7,052 nucleotides of DNA from a virus (Duplodnaviria; Heunggongvirae; Uroviricota; Caudoviricetes), in IMG/VR virus record IMGVR_UViG_2585427745_000012; one strand, written 5' to 3'. The notes under the pieces are model-generated. The model was given only the letters and a program-made list of their open reading frames with translations. It made no database searches and was not told the origin of the DNA. Position numbers and translations under genes: made by a program. Below, piece by piece: positions 1 to 7,052 of this stretch (within the stretch, counting starts at the first letter, position 1; each line of letters opens with the position of its first letter).

Positions 1-495
<495 letters not shown>

Positions 496-900: not shown

Positions 901-2862
901 TCATGCCGCGATGTCCGCGTTGTTCACTTCCACCTTCACACTGTCAATCAGCAGCGTATATGTCGCCGCCTTTGATATGCCTGTCAGTTGCAGTTTGTCC
1001 GCCGCCCCTGATGCCGGAGATTTCACCAGTGTGAACGGCGTCCCCCGTTTCTCATCCAGTACCGGCGTCACCTGAATGCTGTTGTTTCCGGCAAACTCAA
1101 AAGCCAGTGTGTGCCATCCGTTATCAAAGACCCCGAACGTTTCCAGCTTCGCATTCGGCTTCTTGTGGTGCATCGCGTTCAGGTTCGTCGCATCCGTCTG
1201 CAGAAAGAAGGACATCAGCATGTCGTTGCCTTCCTCTGCCAGCGTCACTCCCTCCGGCAGGGACGACAACTGCCAGTAAATGCCCAGGGCAAACTGATTC
1301 GGCACCAGTGAACCCGGCAACTTAAACCGTACGCTCACACGTCCCCCCTTCTTCAGTAACTCCACTCCCTGTCCGGCTGCATCATGCTCCAGAAACCAGA
1401 TGTGGTTTTCCGGTTTATTCAGTTGCAGGGCCTTACCTCCCGTAGCCCCCGCATCACTGACCACCGCTTCAGCAATGTTTTTGTTAACATTGTCTCCGCT
1501 CGCCGGTTTGTGATAATAGCGCCAGCCCTGTGATGCCAGGTCTTCGCCGGACGCCAGCAGACTCATCAGGGTTCGGTTACTGACCGGGGCTTCCGGCTCT
1601 CTCTCCGTACCTTCACCGGAAGGTCCGGTGGGCTTCACCGTATCAGGCTGTTTTCCGGTAATGAATTCAGCGTTTCTCCCGGCATGCACAAGAATCGCCG
1701 TTGCCAGACGGTCGGAAATAATCCCACGACGTGCCCATGATCCAAAATGCGTTTTACGGTCGGCCGTCGTCCAGGTTTTGGCGTCCGTTCGACCACCGCC
1801 TCCGTAATACCCAATATCCGCAACATCCGGATCTTCTGACGGCTCGTTGGTACCCACATTTCGCCCGTTTTCATCCGTCATAAACGGCACAAAGAAGATT
1901 TTTTTTGCGGATTTCGTCTTGTATGCACCATACACCGCATCGTATTGCGAAGAATAAGTCTGCTTCCAGTAGTAGGTCGTGTCGCCACAAATCCAGGGAA
2001 CCGATGACGGAGAGCCCCCGAGACACTGACCTCCGAATTCCGACAGGTCAGAACGATATTTTTCCACCATGGAATCAAACAGCCCCGGCTGAGTGGCGTA
2101 TGCACCCTGTTTCAAATCAAACTCGCCCTGCATCCAGACCACTGCAAGCAGAATATTTTTAGGGTTGGCCTTCAGTGCGGCCTGAGTACGGGTAAGCAGG
2201 TCCTTGTACAGTGGCTTATCAACACCCCAGCGTGCCGAGGTCTCGCTTGCGCCGGTGGATTCGCTGAAGGTACCTTCATCGCCCGCCAAAAATGCAGAAC
2301 CACCACGGCAGCACGGAACCAGAAGAATACCGGCATTCGCCGGAATAAACGGCAACAATTTCTTCGCGATATGTAATCCCTGCCCCACGCATCCATACTG
2401 AGCTGCGCTGGCTTTCGGGTGTGAAAACTTACTCAAATCCTGAACATCATGCAGGCAGTGGTCCGCAGGAATAATGTCATTGTAGTTACAGGACGCACCA
2501 CCCGGCGTGACAGTGCTGCGACGCGCCAGCTGTTTAATACGCGGGTCCGGACGGTCATATGTCTCCGGCAGCGGAAGCCCTTCACCATACGCCATACCGT
2601 TTGACTGCCCGGCCAGGGCAACAACAAAGTAATACTCCGGGTTGCTGGTGGTGCTGATAACTGCGCCTTCTCCATCCGACGGCTTCACCACCACAGGTGT
2701 GGTGACATCACCTTCCGCCGCAATGGCCTGCATCAGGGTATAAGGCGTGATGGCCACCGGACTGCCAAATGGCTGCCACCCCTCCTTCAGTTTTTGTGTC
2801 AGTCGTTTCGCAAGGTCTGACGGCGATGCCGCCCTGACAACATCATAGTGTTTAAATGCCAT
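901..2862 (-). CDS. nanS-p: NanS-p-like prophage sialate (9-O-acetyl-N-acetylneuraminate) O-acetylesterase; N-terminal DUF1737-like region plus SASA/SGNH esterase domain plus C-terminal domain
   Basis: Long uninterrupted minus-strand ORF. The product starts MAFKHYDVVRAASPSDLAKRL, carries the serine-esterase motif ALAGQSNGMAYG, and is about 650 aa, matching the prophage esterases found just downstream of stx in Stx phages. Start chosen at ATG 2862-2860 (SD-like GGTGGAAAG upstream); an in-frame ATG at 2877-2875 has no SD. Stop TGA at 903-901. Confidence 0.75.
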   Translation of the reverse strand: MAFKHYDVVRAASPSDLAKRLTQKLKEGWQPFGSPVAITPYTLMQAIAAEGDVTTPVVVKPSDGEGAVISTTSNPEYYFVVALAGQSNGMAYGEGLPLPETYDRPDPRIKQLARRSTVTPGGASCNYNDIIPADHCLHDVQDLSKFSHPKASAAQYGCVGQGLHIAKKLLPFIPANAGILLVPCCRGGSAFLAGDEGTFSESTGASETSARWGVDKPLYKDLLTRTQAALKANPKNILLAVVWMQGEFDLKQGAYATQPGLFDSMVEKYRSDLSEFGGQCLGGSPSSVPWICGDTTYYWKQTYSSQYDAVYGAYKTKSAKKIFFVPFMTDENGRNVGTNEPSEDPDVADIGYYGGGGRTDAKTWTTADRKTHFGSWARRGIISDRLATAILVHAGRNAEFITGKQPDTVKPTGPSGEGTEREPEAPVSNRTLMSLLASGEDLASQGWRYYHKPASGDNVNKNIAEAVVSDAGATGGKALQLNKPENHIWFLEHDAAGQGVELLKKGGRVSVRFKLPGSLVPNQFALGIYWQLSSLPEGVTLAEEGNDMLMSFFLQTDATNLNAMHHKKPNAKLETFGVFDNGWHTLAFEFAGNNSIQVTPVLDEKRGTPFTLVKSPASGAADKLQLTGISKAATYTLLIDSVKVEVNNADIAA

Positions 2863-3052
2863 GGTTCTTTCCACCATCTGAAAAATAATTCTTTAAAATA
2901 CCTGACATGTAATACAGAAAAAACACAAAACCATACCTTAAATAAAAACCTCATCATCAAGCAGATATGCATGGATAAACTACAAGACGAGATATAAACC
3001 ACCCTGCATTTAAATAAACAATAAACAACATCAGAAAAATAATTCTGCTCTA

Positions 3053-3082
3053 TGGTTTACATTCAAAAATATCATTTATACT
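3053..3082 (+). promoter_or_regulatory. Candidate sigma70 promoter for the 111-aa cargo ORF
   Basis: TTTACA (3056-3061) and TATACT (3077-3082) lie in an AT-rich leader about 40 bp upstream of ATG 3123. The 15-bp spacer is short; the alternative -35 TGGTTT (3053-3058) gives an 18-bp spacer. Sequence-only prediction. Confidence 0.3.
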
Positions 3083-3122
3083 TTTCAGAACATCACCAGC
3101 AAGACATAAACAAGGAAACTAA

Positions 3123-3458
3123 ATGAAGTGGATTGTGATTGATACAGTTATCCAGCCATCATGCGGAATATCTTTTTCAGTCATATGGAGTAAAATAAAA
3201 TTAATAATCTGGTATCAATCGGATGCTTTCTTACCTCCTGAAAGTATATTTACACTGACTCACACAGGTATCATGCTCAATAACAAAGTGCTACCTGTAA
3301 CCATTTACAACGTAGCACCATTCAATAAAACATTCTGGAATTTAATCAAAAACAGCCAGGAATGTCCTACAAATACAGATAACGTATTGAATGAATGCTT
3401 TAATAACCGTTGCACTCTGCAAATATGTCCTTATGGACTAAAACAACAAAGTCCATAA
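3123..3458 (+). CDS. Hypothetical protein, 111 aa, AT-rich moron-like gene, function unknown
   Basis: ATG at 3123 preceded by a good SD (AAGGAAA, 4-5 nt spacer). AT-rich codon usage differs from the flanking phage genes. It is transcribed opposite to the late operon. The C-terminus carries 5 Cys. No family recognised by eye. Confidence 0.45.
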
Positions 3459-3462
3459 GGAG
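3428..3462. repeat. Perfect 12-bp inverted repeat (TCCTTATGGACT / AGTCCATAAGGA) with an 11-nt loop, overlapping the stop codon of the 111-aa ORF
   Basis: Read directly from the sequence. It could form a stable hairpin on either strand. Confidence 0.6.
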
Positions 3463-3475
3463 TTTACTCACATCT

Positions 3476-3514
3476 GACAAAATCAATATAAACAGCCCCT
3501 CCGGAGAGGGGCTG
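3476..3514 (-). terminator. Candidate intrinsic terminator for minus-strand transcription
   Basis: A 9-bp GC-rich stem (3493-3514, CAGCCCCTC/GAGGGGCTG, loop CGGA) is followed on the minus strand by the U-rich tract TGTTTATATTGATTTTG. There is no T-run after it on the plus strand. Confidence 0.45.
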
Positions 3515-3905
3515 GAGAGTGGCGCTATGTGCCATTGCATGGTGCCGGGTGCCTCCCGGTGAATTCAGTACCAGCACCTGAATCCGCGATTATCCCATAT
3601 ACCTACTCGCTGATTGCCCCTCCGCACAGGGGGATTCACCATGCCAGTTTCTTTTAACAAACTCCCCGCAAACCAGACAACAGTCAACCGCCTGAATTGT
3701 GAAGTATTTAAAAATTTCTCCCGCTAACTGATACCCGGCTAACAGTCTGGCGTTTTCTTTTTCAGCAACGGGAAAGCAACAACCACCACACCCGCCACCA
3801 GCACACCGTCAGCCAGCACTGACATTATCCGGCTGCTGCAATGCCACTCACAAAAACAGTAAGCAATCACTTTTTACCGTAACAAGTGATAATCCAGATA
3901 TGTAT

Positions 3906-4259
3906 CTACCCCAGATGAGTAATCCGAAGTTCATCCATACCACAGGTCCTGGCTATTCTGTTGTACTCCTGAACAAGAGCAAATAATTCTGAATTAGCAA
4001 CCATGAACTCATCGCAAACCCTCTGAATAGCATCACTATTCAGAATAATAACGTCTCTTCCCGAAAGACGATCAGGAGTACAGAACAAAACTGTCAAACG
4101 GCTGAAGGCCTTTGCTCGTGCTGCATTGACTATATCAATACGCTGCCTAAGGATGAAACACCCCGACGCCTCATCAATATTCACTCTACCCACACCATAT
4201 GAATGATAAATATTTAATGCTGAAAAAACCATTAGACCGTATAACAAACACTCAATCAA
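3906..4259 (-). CDS. Hypothetical protein (about 108-117 aa), cargo gene in late-operon orientation immediately downstream of the tRNA cluster
   Basis: The ORF opens at TTG 4259-4257; the first in-frame ATG is 4232-4230; stop TAG at 3908-3906. There is no convincing SD for either start. It shares strand and position with stxA in Stx phages but shows no resemblance to Stx. Function unknown. Confidence 0.35.
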   Translation of the reverse strand: MIECLLYGLMVFSALNIYHSYGVGRVNIDEASGCFILRQRIDIVNAARAKAFSRLTVLFCTPDRLSGRDVIILNSDAIQRVCDEFMVANSELFALVQEYNRIARTCGMDELRITHLG

Positions 4260-4372
4260 TACTTAACAGAACTTTTATTTTTGACAAACATATAATATTT
4301 TCAACAATATCCTGAGCCAGGTATATTTCAGTATAAGGCTCTGCCGGAAGGAATCTGGAAGAATGAATATAG

Positions 4373-4446
4373 CGCGCTGTACTGGATTCGAACCAGTGAC
4401 CGATTGCTTAGAAGGCAATTGCTCTGTCCGGCTGAGCTAACAACGC
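4373..4446 (-). tRNA. argO: tRNA-Arg (anticodon UCU), argO-like
   Basis: Manual fold on the minus strand: acceptor GCGTTGT/ACAGCGC, D-arm GCTC-AGCCGGACA-GAGC, anticodon arm ATTGC-CTTCTAA-GCAAT (anticodon TCT), T-arm ACTGG-TTCGAAT-CCAGT. CCA is not encoded. Confidence 0.9.
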
Positions 4447-4546: not shown

Positions 4547-4622
4547 TGGTGGCCCTTGCTGGATTTGAACCAGCGACCTGGCGATTATGAGTCGCTCGCT
4601 CTCACCACTGAGCTAAAGGGCC
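4547..4622 (-). tRNA. ileZ: tRNA-Ile2 (anticodon CAU, lysidine type; ileX/ileZ-like)
   Basis: Minus-strand sequence GGCCCTTTAGCTCAGTGGTGAGAGCGAGCGACTCATAATCGCCAGGTCGCTGGTTCAAATCCAGCAAGGGCCACCA folds canonically (acceptor GGCCCTT/AAGGGCC, anticodon loop CTCATAA, T-loop TTCAAAT, encoded CCA). It closely resembles E. coli ileX from memory; an elongator tRNA-Met cannot be fully excluded from sequence alone. Confidence 0.88.
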
Positions 4623-4658: not shown

Positions 4659-4685
4659 AATAAAAAACCCGCTCGGCGGCGGGTT
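4659..4685 (-). terminator. tR'-like intrinsic terminator of the short pR' transcript
   Basis: On the minus strand, stem AACCCGC / GCGGGTT with loop CGCCGA is followed by TTTTTTATTG, about 65 nt downstream of the predicted pR' start. Confidence 0.6.
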
Positions 4686-4716
4686 GTAGAAACTCTTCTA
4701 ACGTCAGGCATAAAAG

Positions 4717-4760
4717 GCCCATCGTTATGACGAATTTACCACAGATTCCGGAAAAATCAA
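4717..4760 (-). promoter_or_regulatory. Late promoter pR'-like with pause/qut element
   Basis: On the minus strand: -35 TTGATT (4760-4755), 16-nt spacer, -10 TAAATT (4738-4733), then CGTCATAACGATGGG. The TAAATT -10 and the downstream AACGAT element mirror lambda pR' and its sigma-dependent pause signal as I recall them. It lies 6-30 bp downstream of the Q stop. Confidence 0.55.
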
Positions 4761-4765
4761 CCTTG

Positions 4766-5587
4766 TTACCTAGTTACCTTTTTTAACTGCCGCTCAGCCC
4801 ATGCTTCTTCAATATCAAACCGGGTCACCAGCGCATCATAGAATTTCTTAACTGTTTTTTCCCATGACGCGCGTGTTATCTGGTTTGTCACCTCGCATAT
4901 AGCATTAAATGCCTCCGTTGATGGTAGTCTTTCATAGCCACGACCACCACAACGCTGGCAGTCTCTGATAACAGGCATACCACGTTTTACCGACTCTTCA
5001 CGGTGAATGGCGACACCACGCCCACGGCAATCCTTACAGGCGGTGGAAACCTCACCCTTTCCGCCACACTCCGGACAGGCAACTTTTACCACCTCCCTGA
5101 CTTTTTTCCATTCTTCCCAGTAAGACGGATACACACCTTTCGTACACTTTGCCCATACCGGCGGCTTACCATCCGGATACTGGACCTTGTTTGTAAAAAC
5201 TATGCTTTCAATAAATTTTTCCCCATAGCAACAAGGGCACTGCTTTTTACTCGCTGCGCTGCGGGCATAATCCTCAAAAGCGTACGAAGCCATAATGCGC
5301 ATCACTACCGGTTTTATTTCTGCCGGAAGTTTTCTCAACGCCGCCACACGATCGCACCGACTGAGTGCATAATCTGCCAGTAATTCTGTTGCCCGCACCC
5401 TGTCATTCATACTGATGCCCATTTTCCCCAGGAACGCAGAAAAACCCATCTCAGCCCGATTCTGTGTCATGCCCTGCGCGGCCATCACATCAGTGATACT
5501 CAGCGCATCTTTTGACGTTGAGGCCGATGCATCGGTCAGGCCAGGGGATTTTGGGGAGTAGTATTTCGGTAAATCTTCCAGTTTCAT
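4766..5587 (-). CDS. Q: Late-gene antitermination protein Q (lambda-type Q family) with an enlarged zinc-finger region
   Basis: 273-aa product. Blocks YSPKSPGLTD, TDVMAAQGMTQNRAEMGFSAFLGK, ASYAFEDYARSAA, CQRCGGRGYERLP and the C-terminus WEKTVKKFYDALV...KVTR align with lambda Q as recalled. Its position (after rusA, before pR' and the tRNAs) is canonical. The start ATG overlaps the rusA stop (ATGA). Confidence 0.8.
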   Translation of the reverse strand: MKLEDLPKYYSPKSPGLTDASASTSKDALSITDVMAAQGMTQNRAEMGFSAFLGKMGISMNDRVRATELLADYALSRCDRVAALRKLPAEIKPVVMRIMASYAFEDYARSAASKKQCPCCYGEKFIESIVFTNKVQYPDGKPPVWAKCTKGVYPSYWEEWKKVREVVKVACPECGGKGEVSTACKDCRGRGVAIHREESVKRGMPVIRDCQRCGGRGYERLPSTEAFNAICEVTNQITRASWEKTVKKFYDALVTRFDIEEAWAERQLKKVTR

Positions 5588-5958
5588 TTTTTGACCTGCT
5601 CTTCATGCATTATGGGGTAAATCTTCACCCCCAGACGTCCACCAGATACTGGCTGACCACGAACGATATTGATTTCATCAAACTGCTCATCGTCCATTAA
5701 CACTCCCGCATGCGTCAGCGCATCCAGCGGTGCTTTCAGGATATTGTCCAGGTCGCGACGACGCTTATCCGGTGGCTCTGCAATCACCTTTATCGCCAGC
5801 CTTCCGGACAGGCTTAATTTCAGCCGCTGCTGGCGAACAATAAGCGCCACAGCCCGGCGATAACGCTTTCCCTCCTCCGAGATAAAATATGTGCTGCCAC
5901 GGCGTCGCCAGTAAGTGTTCACCGTCGGCGGGTAAGGTAAAACCAAATCTATGAGCAT
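5584..5958 (-). CDS. rusA: RusA-family Holliday junction resolvase (crossover junction endodeoxyribonuclease)
   Basis: 124 aa. The N-terminus LPYPPTVNTYWRRRG...SEEGKRYR and the PDKRRRDLDNILKAPLDALTHAGVLMDDEQ block carrying the catalytic acidic residues resemble E. coli RusA. Good SD (AGAGGTGA) before ATG 5958. Confidence 0.85.
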   Translation of the reverse strand: MLIDLVLPYPPTVNTYWRRRGSTYFISEEGKRYRRAVALIVRQQRLKLSLSGRLAIKVIAEPPDKRRRDLDNILKAPLDALTHAGVLMDDEQFDEINIVRGQPVSGGRLGVKIYPIMHEEQVKK

Positions 5959-5970
5959 CAGTCACCTCTT

Positions 5971-7052
5971 TTACCCAAGCACGCCAGTTGCAAAGGCGTG
6001 ATCAAGAAAACGAAAAATTAAATCAACCTGAGAACCATGCTTTTCTTCGAACGCCAGAGGATCCGCATGAAGCTCGTTGTGATGCTCCCGACACAGCGGT
6101 AGCGTGAAAATATCGTGAGATTTTGTCCCCATTCCGCCCTGACCATGACCAATCAGGTGATGGGGATCGTCGGCTGGCTTACCACAACACGCACACGGCT
6201 GTGTCTTCACCCAGCGTGTGTATTTCTCGTTAACCCAGCGGCGACGTTTAGGTCGTTTCATGAAAGATTCCGGAGACTCAGGATCAACGGCAATGCTGAC
6301 CACCGTCTCTTCCTGTGGCGGGTTTTGCTGGTGGGCGTGAGGCAGCGGCGCAAGATTTTTTGTGCGCTGCTTCAGTATGCTGGTGGCGGTCTGCTCTCCC
6401 GGTACGATGTCGCTTTCACGGTACATTGAGCGGATTTTTTCCGCACGCAACCCCAGCGAACGACGTAATACCGCTTCCGGTAGCGCGTCCGCCACCTGAT
6501 TGCGGACCGCCCACCAGGATAATTCAGCCAGCGATAATTCCCGTTCCTGCGAGCCATTCATTGCATGGCGTATGACGTCAATCATCCATGCAGACAGGTT
6601 TTGGTGAGCAAGTTGCCCGAGTGATTCGGAGGTCTGGTCGCGCAGCTGGTTGTCGCAGTGCCAGCACAACACCATTGCGCCGGTACCATAACGGTGAATG
6701 ACGGTTTCACTGTGGTGATAATCGCCGTGTTGCCACTGGCAGGATTTAACATGGCGCAGTAACCAGTCAGACAATGCGCCAGCGCCACCAGCAGCACGAA
6801 TCACTCGTTCGTCGCTGAAAAATGGCAGTAATGATTTATCCTCCGCCAGCGGCTGGCGAACGGCAGGAACGACCCCGGACGGCAGATTACGCATGCTTTT
6901 CGGTTCCGGCTCCACCAGTACCCGGGTATTGTGGAATACCGGCATGGATTCACGGCCCGGCTTAACGATCACCAGCCCGAGTTCCGGTACCAGAACAGGT
7001 CGAAGTAATACCCGCACGTTACCTCCAGATGCGTTGCTGGAATGTGCGGGAC
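5971..7052 (-). CDS. Lambdoid prophage DUF968-like protein with C-terminal HNH-type Cys/His motif (YdfU-like); 5' end beyond the window
   Basis: The frame is open to the window edge with no stop upstream of the reported GTG at 7017. The C-terminal region CACCGKPADDPHHLIGHGQGG...CREHHNELH is HNH-like. It sits immediately upstream of rusA as in other lambdoid prophages. Stop TAA at 5973-5971. Family assignment is from memory. Confidence 0.6.
   Translation of the reverse strand, partial: PAHSSNASGGNVRVLLRPVLVPELGLVIVKPGRESMPVFHNTRVLVEPEPKSMRNLPSGVVPAVRQPLAEDKSLLPFFSDERVIRAAGGAGALSDWLLRHVKSCQWQHGDYHHSETVIHRYGTGAMVLCWHCDNQLRDQTSESLGQLAHQNLSAWMIDVIRHAMNGSQERELSLAELSWWAVRNQVADALPEAVLRRSLGLRAEKIRSMYRESDIVPGEQTATSILKQRTKNLAPLPHAHQQNPPQEETVVSIAVDPESPESFMKRPKRRRWVNEKYTRWVKTQPCACCGKPADDPHHLIGHGQGGMGTKSHDIFTLPLCREHHNELHADPLAFEEKHGSQVDLIFRFLDHAFATGVLG

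Follow-up and report, generated by a model that had tools for sequence, protein, structure and literature searches.

An STnc100 small RNA and a probable tciB remnant in an intergenic gap of a lambdoid prophage

The DNA studied here, a stretch of 7,052 nucleotides (nt) filed as IMG/VR virus record IMGVR_UViG_2585427745_000012 and called the window throughout, is the late-regulatory ("moron") region of a lambdoid prophage, and its gene order is read on the minus strand. Between two cargo open reading frames (ORFs), one matching PHROG 2873 and the other an iraM-like anti-adapter gene, lies a gap of about 430 bp (positions 3476-3905). A preliminary description had read this gap as a decayed gene or as a module of regulatory or non-coding RNA, and not as random spacer; both halves of that reading are supported. 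We show herein that the lower part of the gap holds a full-length member of the small RNA (sRNA) family STnc100 on the minus strand, and that the upper part is recognizably homologous to tciB. Very probably, the lower part (about 3486-3718, minus strand) is a self-contained STnc100 gene and the upper part (3739-3905) a degenerate tciB.

An STnc100 sRNA in the lower part of the gap

Judged by the Rfam model (RF02076, "Gammaproteobacterial sRNA"), the copy in the window is STnc100 proper, not PasD; the match covers the model from end to end (Table 1) and lies above the gathering score of 47 bits. When 3380-3960 was scanned for other RNA families at E values up to 10, nothing was found beyond a chance match to a snoRNA, and the convergent partner RNAs AsxR and AgvB (RF02702 and RF02703; 51-60 nt) gave no match at E ≤10 in that interval or at E ≤1 in the whole window. 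Homologs were collected from phage records, Escherichia coli genomes, two other Escherichia species and IMG/VR contigs; a scan of contigs with the 27-nt core motif returned E. albertii and E. ruysiae only, an exact motif being too strict to give a taxonomic picture. One E. coli chromosome carries 3460-3910 at 100% identity, with a matching gene order, and of 5,426 complete E. coli genomes, 2,860 gave a match to the region or to a part of it, 1,189 of them having 80% or more. Such a copy is already known in kind: the family is curated in Rfam, close relatives have been the subject of several experimental papers, and a 2026 preprint (bioRxiv 10.64898/2026.05.13.724894) addresses exactly this sRNA family and context.

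As the preliminary description had it, no ORF of 60 amino acids (aa) or more lies inside 3476-3905, the longest ones overlapping it having 50, 46, 43 and 42 aa. The five inverted repeats that it listed are likewise all present by repeat search and folding (3493-3501/3506-3514, 3563-3568/3578-3583 and 3866-3877/3879-3890, together with the CCGGG/CCCGG and CCCCT/AGGGG stems, which were recovered in the computed folds). Its phrase "highly structured", applied to the gap as a whole, fits about 190 of the 430 bp. The lower part (3476-3673) contains 10 perfect stems of at least 5 bp where 2.2 are expected, a number that none of 300 dinucleotide shuffles reached, and the fold z-score of 3484-3673 on the minus strand is -2.26. 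On the contrary, 3674-3905 shows no excess over shuffles, with 2 such stems against 2.0 expected (p 0.55) and a z-score of +0.24.

Four of the five repeats are hairpins P2, P3 and P4 and the terminator of a single multi-branched RNA, in which a long-range helix, P1, pairs 3637-3644 with 3537-3544 and encloses the three hairpins. The minus strand, the union of the four stems in one RNA and the closing helix are points absent from the preliminary description; the fifth repeat (3866-3890) is unrelated to this RNA and is taken up below. From 20 copies, RNAalifold recovered P1 to P4 and the terminator without the Rfam structure as input, and 96.4% of cells were paired, versus 37-53% when the 3' partners were slid; with 84 distinct copies, the corresponding values were 90.5% and 36-49%. 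Compensatory changes among the 84 copies affected 15 pairs and 105 cells, compared with 8.6 ± 1.4 and 32 ± 10 in shuffles, and none of 500 shuffles reached any of the five covariation measures. Most of this signal comes from P3, whose helix one variant (L091) has replaced throughout by GGGACGCUG/CAGCGUCUC. For the trimmed RNA (3486-3644, minus strand), the minimum-free-energy, centroid and consensus folds coincide at -69.5 kcal/mol, with a z-score of -3.10 and none of 200 shuffles as good. At its 3' end, a 9-bp stem with 7 G-C pairs is followed by TTTATATT on the minus strand, as in Rho-independent terminators; on the plus strand, no T-run follows the 3493-3514 stem.

Table 1. Features of the window in descending order of position; for RNA elements the basis of assignment is given
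Feature	Position	Strand	Basis or remark
DUF968 gene	5971-7017		
RusA	5584-5958		
Antiterminator Q	4766-5587		PF03589
tR'-like terminator	4666-4685		
tRNA (CAT)	4547-4622		
tRNA-Arg (TCT)	4372-4446		
Upstream cargo ORF, PHROG 2873 (function unassigned)	3906-4259	minus	E 3.8e-70; residues 10-117 vs profile positions 1-108 of 108
Putative decayed tciA-3'/tciB-5' junction	3871-3905	minus	ancestral GTG start now GTT (3881-3883); overlapping tciA stop TGA now TTA
Hairpin ATCACTT/AAGTGAT (earlier stem 5)	3866-3890	minus	outside the sRNA; covers the present GTG start
Hydrophobic DUF3927/TciB-like ORF, 43 aa, 5'-degenerate	3739-3870	minus	PF13064, 95.6 bits, E 1.7e-27; PHROG 1470 ("TciB-like"), E 7.8e-13; RefSeq WP_000562553.1
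Conserved upstream block	3681-3718	minus	AAATTTTTAAATACTTCACAATTCAGGCGGTTGAC; travels with the sRNA in every context
Proposed sigma-70 promoter	3645-3680	minus	-35 TTGTCT (3675-3680), 18-nt spacer, TG (3658-3659), -10 TAAAAG (3651-3656)
RF02076 (STnc100) match	3484-3673	minus	cmscan 132.4 bits, E 7.7e-30; model positions 1-206 of 206
Predicted STnc100 transcript, about 159 nt	3486-3644	minus	from the G of GCAUGGUG into the U-tract
P1	3637-3644 with 3537-3544	minus	GCAUGGUG with CACCAUGC; closes the multi-branch domain; found independently by RNAalifold; 95% of cells paired (84 sequences), varying solely through G-U
P2, CCCCU/AGGGG (earlier stem 4)	3617-3632	minus	96% paired; almost invariant
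P3, GGAUUCAG/CUGAAUUC (earlier stem 3)	3561-3585	minus	compensatory double changes at 6 of 8 pairs; 97.1% paired
P4, CCGGG/CCCGG (earlier stem 2)	3545-3559	minus	94% paired
Variable 3' segment, mostly single-stranded	3515-3536	minus	AAUGGCACAUAGCGCCACUCUC; candidate seed region
Intrinsic terminator (earlier stem 1)	3485-3514	minus	9-bp stem CAGCCCCUC/GAGGGGCUG, loop UCCG, then UUUAUAUU; terminator scan and Rfam consensus
iraM-like anti-adapter gene, convergent with the sRNA	3123-3458	plus	NCBIfam NF007393, 162.4 bits (cut-off 121), residues 1-110; named iraM in related records
DUF1737/SASA sialate esterase	901-2877		
IS3-type transposase fragment	1-453		

The DUF3927 reading frame in the upper part

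The hydrophobic mini-ORF of the preliminary description proved to match DUF3927 well above the gathering cut-off of PF13064 (25 bits), and its C-terminal 32 residues (SSRIMSVLADGVLVAGVVVVAFPLLKKK...) are nearly identical to TciB of JLK-2012. Full-length TciB proteins have 52-55 aa and two hydrophobic segments; with 43 aa, the frame in the window is missing the first of these, its first 11 codons show no homology to the N-terminal hydrophobic segment of the full-length proteins, and the partner gene tciA has been lost at this locus. When the DNA was aligned with tciB of JLK-2012, phage Evi and E2348/69, the homology extended in degraded form past the present start in the upstream direction. The ancestral frame is broken by deletions of 11, 4 and 5 nt (net 20 nt), and the GTG that opens the present ORF (3870) is a new one, which no clear Shine-Dalgarno (SD) sequence precedes. 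From this alignment, 3739-3905 is best read as a decayed tciB that happens to have stayed open.

What speaks against calling it a remnant is that the frame is open and scores above the Pfam threshold, so the word is an interpretation. Instead, the ORF may encode a shortened but functional TciB, a small membrane protein with a single pass, whose translation is controlled by the hairpin over its GTG start. We regard this as unlikely, if the most credible of the alternatives. Its open frame, its score on PF13064 and the intact protein in RefSeq would agree with such a function, but the ancestral start is mutated, codons 2-11 lie out of the ancestral frame, and the substitute start is poorly equipped, as noted. 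The allele occurs at no less than 99% identity in more than 1,000 E. coli genomes, and in phage mEp460_ev081 as well; a high copy number at about 99% identity, however, reflects the spread of one module and not purifying selection. A DUF3927-like ORF also precedes about half of the STnc100/PasD copies (73/150). As for the supposed control element, the 7-bp repeat at 3866-3890 is at the level of chance (p ~0.11), its right arm runs across the 11-nt deletion junction, and its arms are non-complementary in the three aligned homologs; this hairpin probably carries no meaning.

The 73 copies just mentioned carry the DUF3927/TciB-like ORF on the matching strand within 400 nt upstream; they come from 40 of 88 distinct contexts in a set of 150 STnc100/PasD copies made up of loci L002-L140 and the window. 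Both PasD loci of E2348/69 are among them. In this set, 12 copies follow StxB and 34 follow tRNAs. A literature search on TciB and DUF3927 returned no relevant papers, and the terms DUF3927 and IraM are absent from the 2026 Pas preprint (bioRxiv 10.64898/2026.05.13.724894).

Transcript ends, promoter and competing explanations

The STnc100 transcript probably runs from 3644 to 3486 (159 nt), its start being placed by homology with the 5' end of PasD2 (NC_011601 741157-741328, 172 nt; Pearl Mizrahi et al., PMC8550237 supplement). In the alignment, the published PasD2 start (NC_011601 741157) coincides with the G of the invariant GCAUGGUG at window position 3644, 7 nt past TAAAAG. The proposed promoter has the layout TTGnnT, a spacer of 17 or 18 nt and (TGn)TAAAA, the last of these stopping 6-8 nt short of GCATGG; 46 of the 52 distinct upstream sequences conserve this layout, and TTGTTAAAA is invariant in the DNA across the aligned copies. 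The PasD and Evi copies are without the TG, but they have a better -35 (TTGACT or TTGATT). It is therefore probable that the first 29 or so positions of the Rfam model (3645-3673, including TTGTTAAAA) represent promoter DNA, not RNA. Homology between copies begins about 75 nt before GCATGG regardless of the preceding gene, be it stx2B, stx1B, tRNA-Arg or DUF3927. Within the upstream block (3695-3716, minus strand), TCACA at 3698-3702 is nearly invariant; it resembles a CRP half-site, which would be centered at about -61.5 from the predicted start, a class I position, and is offered as a lead only. In Stx2-phage copies this block reads TGTAA-N6-TCACA, and the left half is weak in the window (TTTTA).

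Two mutations 3' of stx2B, T>C at +90 and a T deletion at +103, have been associated with hemolytic uremic syndrome (HUS) (PMC12711010). These changes are differences of phage 1717 (stx2c) versus VT2-Sakai, about 89 and 100-102 nt past stx2B, and correspond to window positions 3659 and 3645-3650. They convert the TG of the proposed extended -10 to CG and shorten the gap between the -10 and the start. The positions suggest that the HUS-linked mutations would act on the dose of the sRNA and not on its sequence.

Several points weigh against a self-transcribed, folded minus-strand RNA as drawn here. The 5' end is borrowed from PasD2, whose RF02076 score (41 bits) is below the gathering threshold and whose start was estimated from RNA-seq coverage, not from a mapped transcription start site; indeed, the 5' end, promoter function and expression of this particular copy all rest on relatives. 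The proposed -10, TAAAAG, is without the usual T at position 6, and the U-tract of the window, UGUUUAUAUU, is weaker than that of most relatives. Real covariation is confined to P3 and the terminator; P1, P2 and P4 are nearly invariant in sequence and therefore give little evidence either way on pairing. Among the transcripts of the window, none stood out as a target of this variant. Finally, the plus strand folds at least as well (z -3.20), which means that the strand is not settled by folding energy. The RNA is assigned to the minus strand because the covariance model matches there, because G-U pairs are frequent (one P3 pair is G-U in 74 of the 84 copies) and would turn into A-C if the other strand were read, and because a U-tract follows the terminator on that strand only.

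Two further difficulties are that a simple promoter scan did not report the proposed promoter and that the Rfam model reaches 29 nt further 5' than the predicted start; the latter leaves room for a longer transcript or for processing from a read-through late transcript. Both also favor an explanation in which the late (pR') or cargo transcript contains the structured element as a cis-acting 3' untranslated region, or for its processing or stability, with a stable fragment freed by RNase; a cargo gene or tRNAs do always stand immediately 5' of the element, on the strand of the late operon. We consider this improbable. The promoter-like block moves with the RNA whatever precedes it, the invariant TTGTTAAAA stands at -10 distance from the published PasD2 start and takes part in no pairing in any fold, RpoD ChIP-exo peaks were reported at STnc100 promoters in Salmonella LT2 (PMC10794520), and copies are expressed in uninduced lysogens (PMC5331693). 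The sole minus-strand match of the promoter scan in the region, from 3853 to 3824, falls inside the DUF3927 ORF and was set aside as unsupported.

It is very improbable that the element instead encodes small proteins, from plus-strand ORFs of 42 or 37 aa or from a near-leaderless 25-aa ORF at the AUG of GCAUGG, and that its conservation is protein-coding. Public records do annotate ORFs antisense to the element, and ribosome footprints were reported on some EDL933 copies of STnc100, with a ribosome coverage value of up to 3.2 (PMC5331693), but none of these ORFs matches a family, the indels among homologs are not multiples of three, stops fall at differing places in the variable segment, and the retained variation is base-pair-compensatory with no third-codon pattern. 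In the Pfam scan, the plus-strand ORFs at 3529-3657 and 3614-3727 and a minus-strand ORF of 40 aa had no family match; all three overlap the sRNA or its promoter, the plus-strand pair in antisense. These mini-ORFs were rejected as genes, their frames not being conserved. The "SD" motifs that the preliminary description had seen before the plus-strand ones are the complements of C-rich helix arms of the sRNA, so that of its mini-ORFs the hydrophobic one has gained a family and the SD-preceded ones are antisense artefacts of G-rich helices. The annotated antisense "hypothetical protein" coding sequences and pseudo-coding sequences are at 3670-3795 (plus strand) in a near-identical E. coli locus (L001), equivalent to window 3529-3654, at 2517-2840 in L009 (Stx1_p144) and at 2301-2699 in L019 (E2348C_RS28255); such calls antisense to STnc100/PasD are probably spurious and spread through homology-based annotation.

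Random spacer, with stems as chance products of GC-rich composition, would account for the shuffle-like upper 232 nt but is already refuted by the match of the lower 190 nt to a curated covariance model (E 8e-30), by their covariation and by the homology of the upper part to tciB.

Likely function, relatives and genomic setting

If it behaves as its relatives do, STnc100 would be an Hfq-associated, trans-acting sRNA of about 160 nt in the "moron" slot, between the Q antiterminator and late promoter on one side and the lysis genes on the other. Its own sigma-70 promoter (-35 TTGTCT, extended -10 TGtTAAAAG) would start transcription at about 3644, and the intrinsic terminator at 3493-3514 with its U-tract would end it. 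The RNA would then fold into a near-invariant 5' domain, with P1 enclosing P2, P3 and P4; next would come the 3' segment, variable and for the most part unpaired, and last the terminator. If PasD and other Hfq sRNAs are a guide, the likely target-pairing seed would be the variable segment, and the terminator with its U-tail the likely Hfq contact. Most likely, the window copy is an Hfq-dependent, base-pairing sRNA of this kind, and its specificity would lie in the 3' segment. Specificity is placed in 3515-3536 because the 5' domain is almost invariant across the alignments while the segment between P1 and the terminator is variable: at least 20 distinct cassettes occur at the equivalent place among the 84 homologs, the window type, AAUGGCACAUAGCGCCACUC, being the commonest (20/84). 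In PasD, the seed lies just 5' of the terminator, at an equivalent place (PMC8550237; bioRxiv 10.64898/2026.05.13.724894). When the 3' variable segment and the internal variable loop were paired by RNAduplex with the 5' regions of iraM, the esterase, the PHROG-2873 ORF, DUF3927 and Q, and with the iraM 3' end, none beat dinucleotide shuffles (best p 0.09).

Expression, Hfq binding and effects on targets are carried over to the window copy from work on relatives. In EDL933, transcription was seen for eleven STnc100 copies and confirmed for one by Northern blotting (PMC5331693). EcOnc27 (sRNA103), encoded just 3' of stx2B, was crosslinked in Hfq-CRAC and confirmed by Northern blotting, and its overexpression raised fimZ and espA transcripts (PMC7873438; PMC12711010). 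PasD1 and PasD2 are among the most abundant Hfq RIL-seq sRNAs of enteropathogenic E. coli (EPEC), with many chimeric partners (PMC8550237), and PasD and STnc100 share an ancestor according to Zhu, Shabalina and Storz (bioRxiv 10.64898/2026.05.13.724894).

The window copy resembles other STnc100 RNAs, EcOnc27/sRNA103 included, in its full-length match (132 bits), four-helix 5' domain and terminator, upstream promoter-like block and position, from Q, tRNAs and cargo to the sialate esterase and lysis genes. Its sequence is about 71% identical to the VT2-Sakai copy; the central variable loop differs, and so does the 3' cassette (AAUGGCACAUAGCGCCACUC in the window against AGUAUACAGAGAUUAGGCAUAU); moreover, EcOnc27 is preceded by stx2B, whereas the window copy is preceded by the putative tciB remnant and has no AsxR partner downstream. 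With PasD1 and PasD2 of EPEC E2348/69, homologs of EcOnc13, the window shares the start motif GCAUGGUGAAUCC, the P1-P3 layout, the promoter layout and, some 40 nt upstream, a DUF3927 gene; PasD2 is also followed by the esterase. Unlike the window copy, however, the PasD RNAs score below the gathering threshold on RF02076 (38-41 bits), have an altered P4 and P1 3' strand, and carry the seed cassette CUUGUGAG and a PasD-type terminator; the window has AAUGGCACAUAGCGCCACUC and a CCCCUC/GAGGGG terminator in their place. STnc100 of the window takes the "sense" position of sRNA/anti-sRNA dyads such as EcOnc27-AsxR and EcOnc06-AgvB (Tree et al. 2014). The partner slot is held by AsxR in VT2-Sakai (L005) and by AgvB in Shigella phage 75/02, and in the window by the convergent iraM-like gene; a scan of related loci for AsxR and AgvB found both present in L005 and L012. 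By crude motif counts over the 134 copies with at least 700 nt downstream, an anti-sRNA-type convergent terminator follows 50, a convergent iraM-like gene 36, neither 48, and both none.

Hybrids with an STnc100-type 5' part and a longer, PasD-like 3' part (…UAUCAUCGUUAUCCCUUUAUUUCCGGCUGCGCAUGGCG…) occur in JLK-2012 (2924-3108) and several IMG/VR loci, and point to recombination between cassettes within the sRNA gene. In some prophages, STnc100 copies of different subtypes stand in tandem, about 280-470 nt apart with small ORFs between them, as in E. albertii L003 (4825-5013 and 5289-5482), L008 (2061-2254 and 2530-2739) and L016 (2031-2219 and 2495-2688).

The surroundings agree with a lambdoid location between Q and the late promoter and the lysis genes: Q, the tRNAs, the sRNA and then the SASA esterase follow one another in the window, and the order matches in 16 related phage or prophage loci, whose 19 RF02076 copies always lie between Q, tRNAs or cargo and an esterase or holin. 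The PHROG-2873 ORF probably starts at the ATG at 4232, giving 108 aa. It is intact, yet PGAP gives it no annotation in phage mEp460_ev081 or at the near-identical locus of E. coli (L001 4050-4400); over the 117-aa ORF region, the window and L001 show 99.1% protein identity. A 12-bp perfect inverted repeat, TCCTTATGGACT/AGTCCATAAGGA with a 10-nt loop, spans the iraM stop codon (3428-3461). It is the sole repeat of that length within 3000-3999 and is possibly a 3' stabilizer or terminator of iraM, though no U-run follows it. The stretch of about 100 nt that separates the stop codon of Q from the 4666-4685 terminator (4659-4765, minus strand) gives a weak, sub-threshold Trp_leader match (25 bits, E 0.08); this is presumably the pR'-tR' leader, the position where Stx phages make StxS (review PMC7873438). 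The tRNA at 4547-4622 is called tRNA-Met (CAT) by ARAGORN, and the identical gene is tRNA-Ile in one RefSeq record and tRNA-Met in others; it is an ileZ-type phage tRNA whose labels are inconsistent between records.

For annotation, an "empty" 430-bp gap becomes a minus-strand sRNA gene and a probable tciB remnant. The gain for biology is small, as STnc100, EcOnc27 and PasD were already established as abundant sRNAs that prophages carry and Hfq binds, and one relative, beside stx2, has already been linked to virulence-gene expression and clinical outcome. Modest additions are a model of the promoter and 5' end, with the first 29 or so Rfam positions read as probable promoter DNA; the placing of published HUS-associated single-nucleotide polymorphisms (SNPs) in the proposed promoter; the frequent linkage of the sRNA to an upstream DUF3927; and a downstream slot held by an anti-sRNA-type terminator or by iraM, never by both. 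Tentatively, and as a possibility short of an expectation, the near-invariant four-helix 5' domain of STnc100/PasD may be a portable scaffold, for example a protein-binding or stabilizing module, for which lambdoid phages swap 3' seed-and-terminator cassettes by recombination, while natural variation in the promoter (TG to CG in the extended -10, loss of a T ahead of the start) tunes the dose. If so, one promoter-plus-scaffold unit would deliver many regulatory specificities, and dose tuning could underlie the HUS-predictive SNPs 3' of stx2B.

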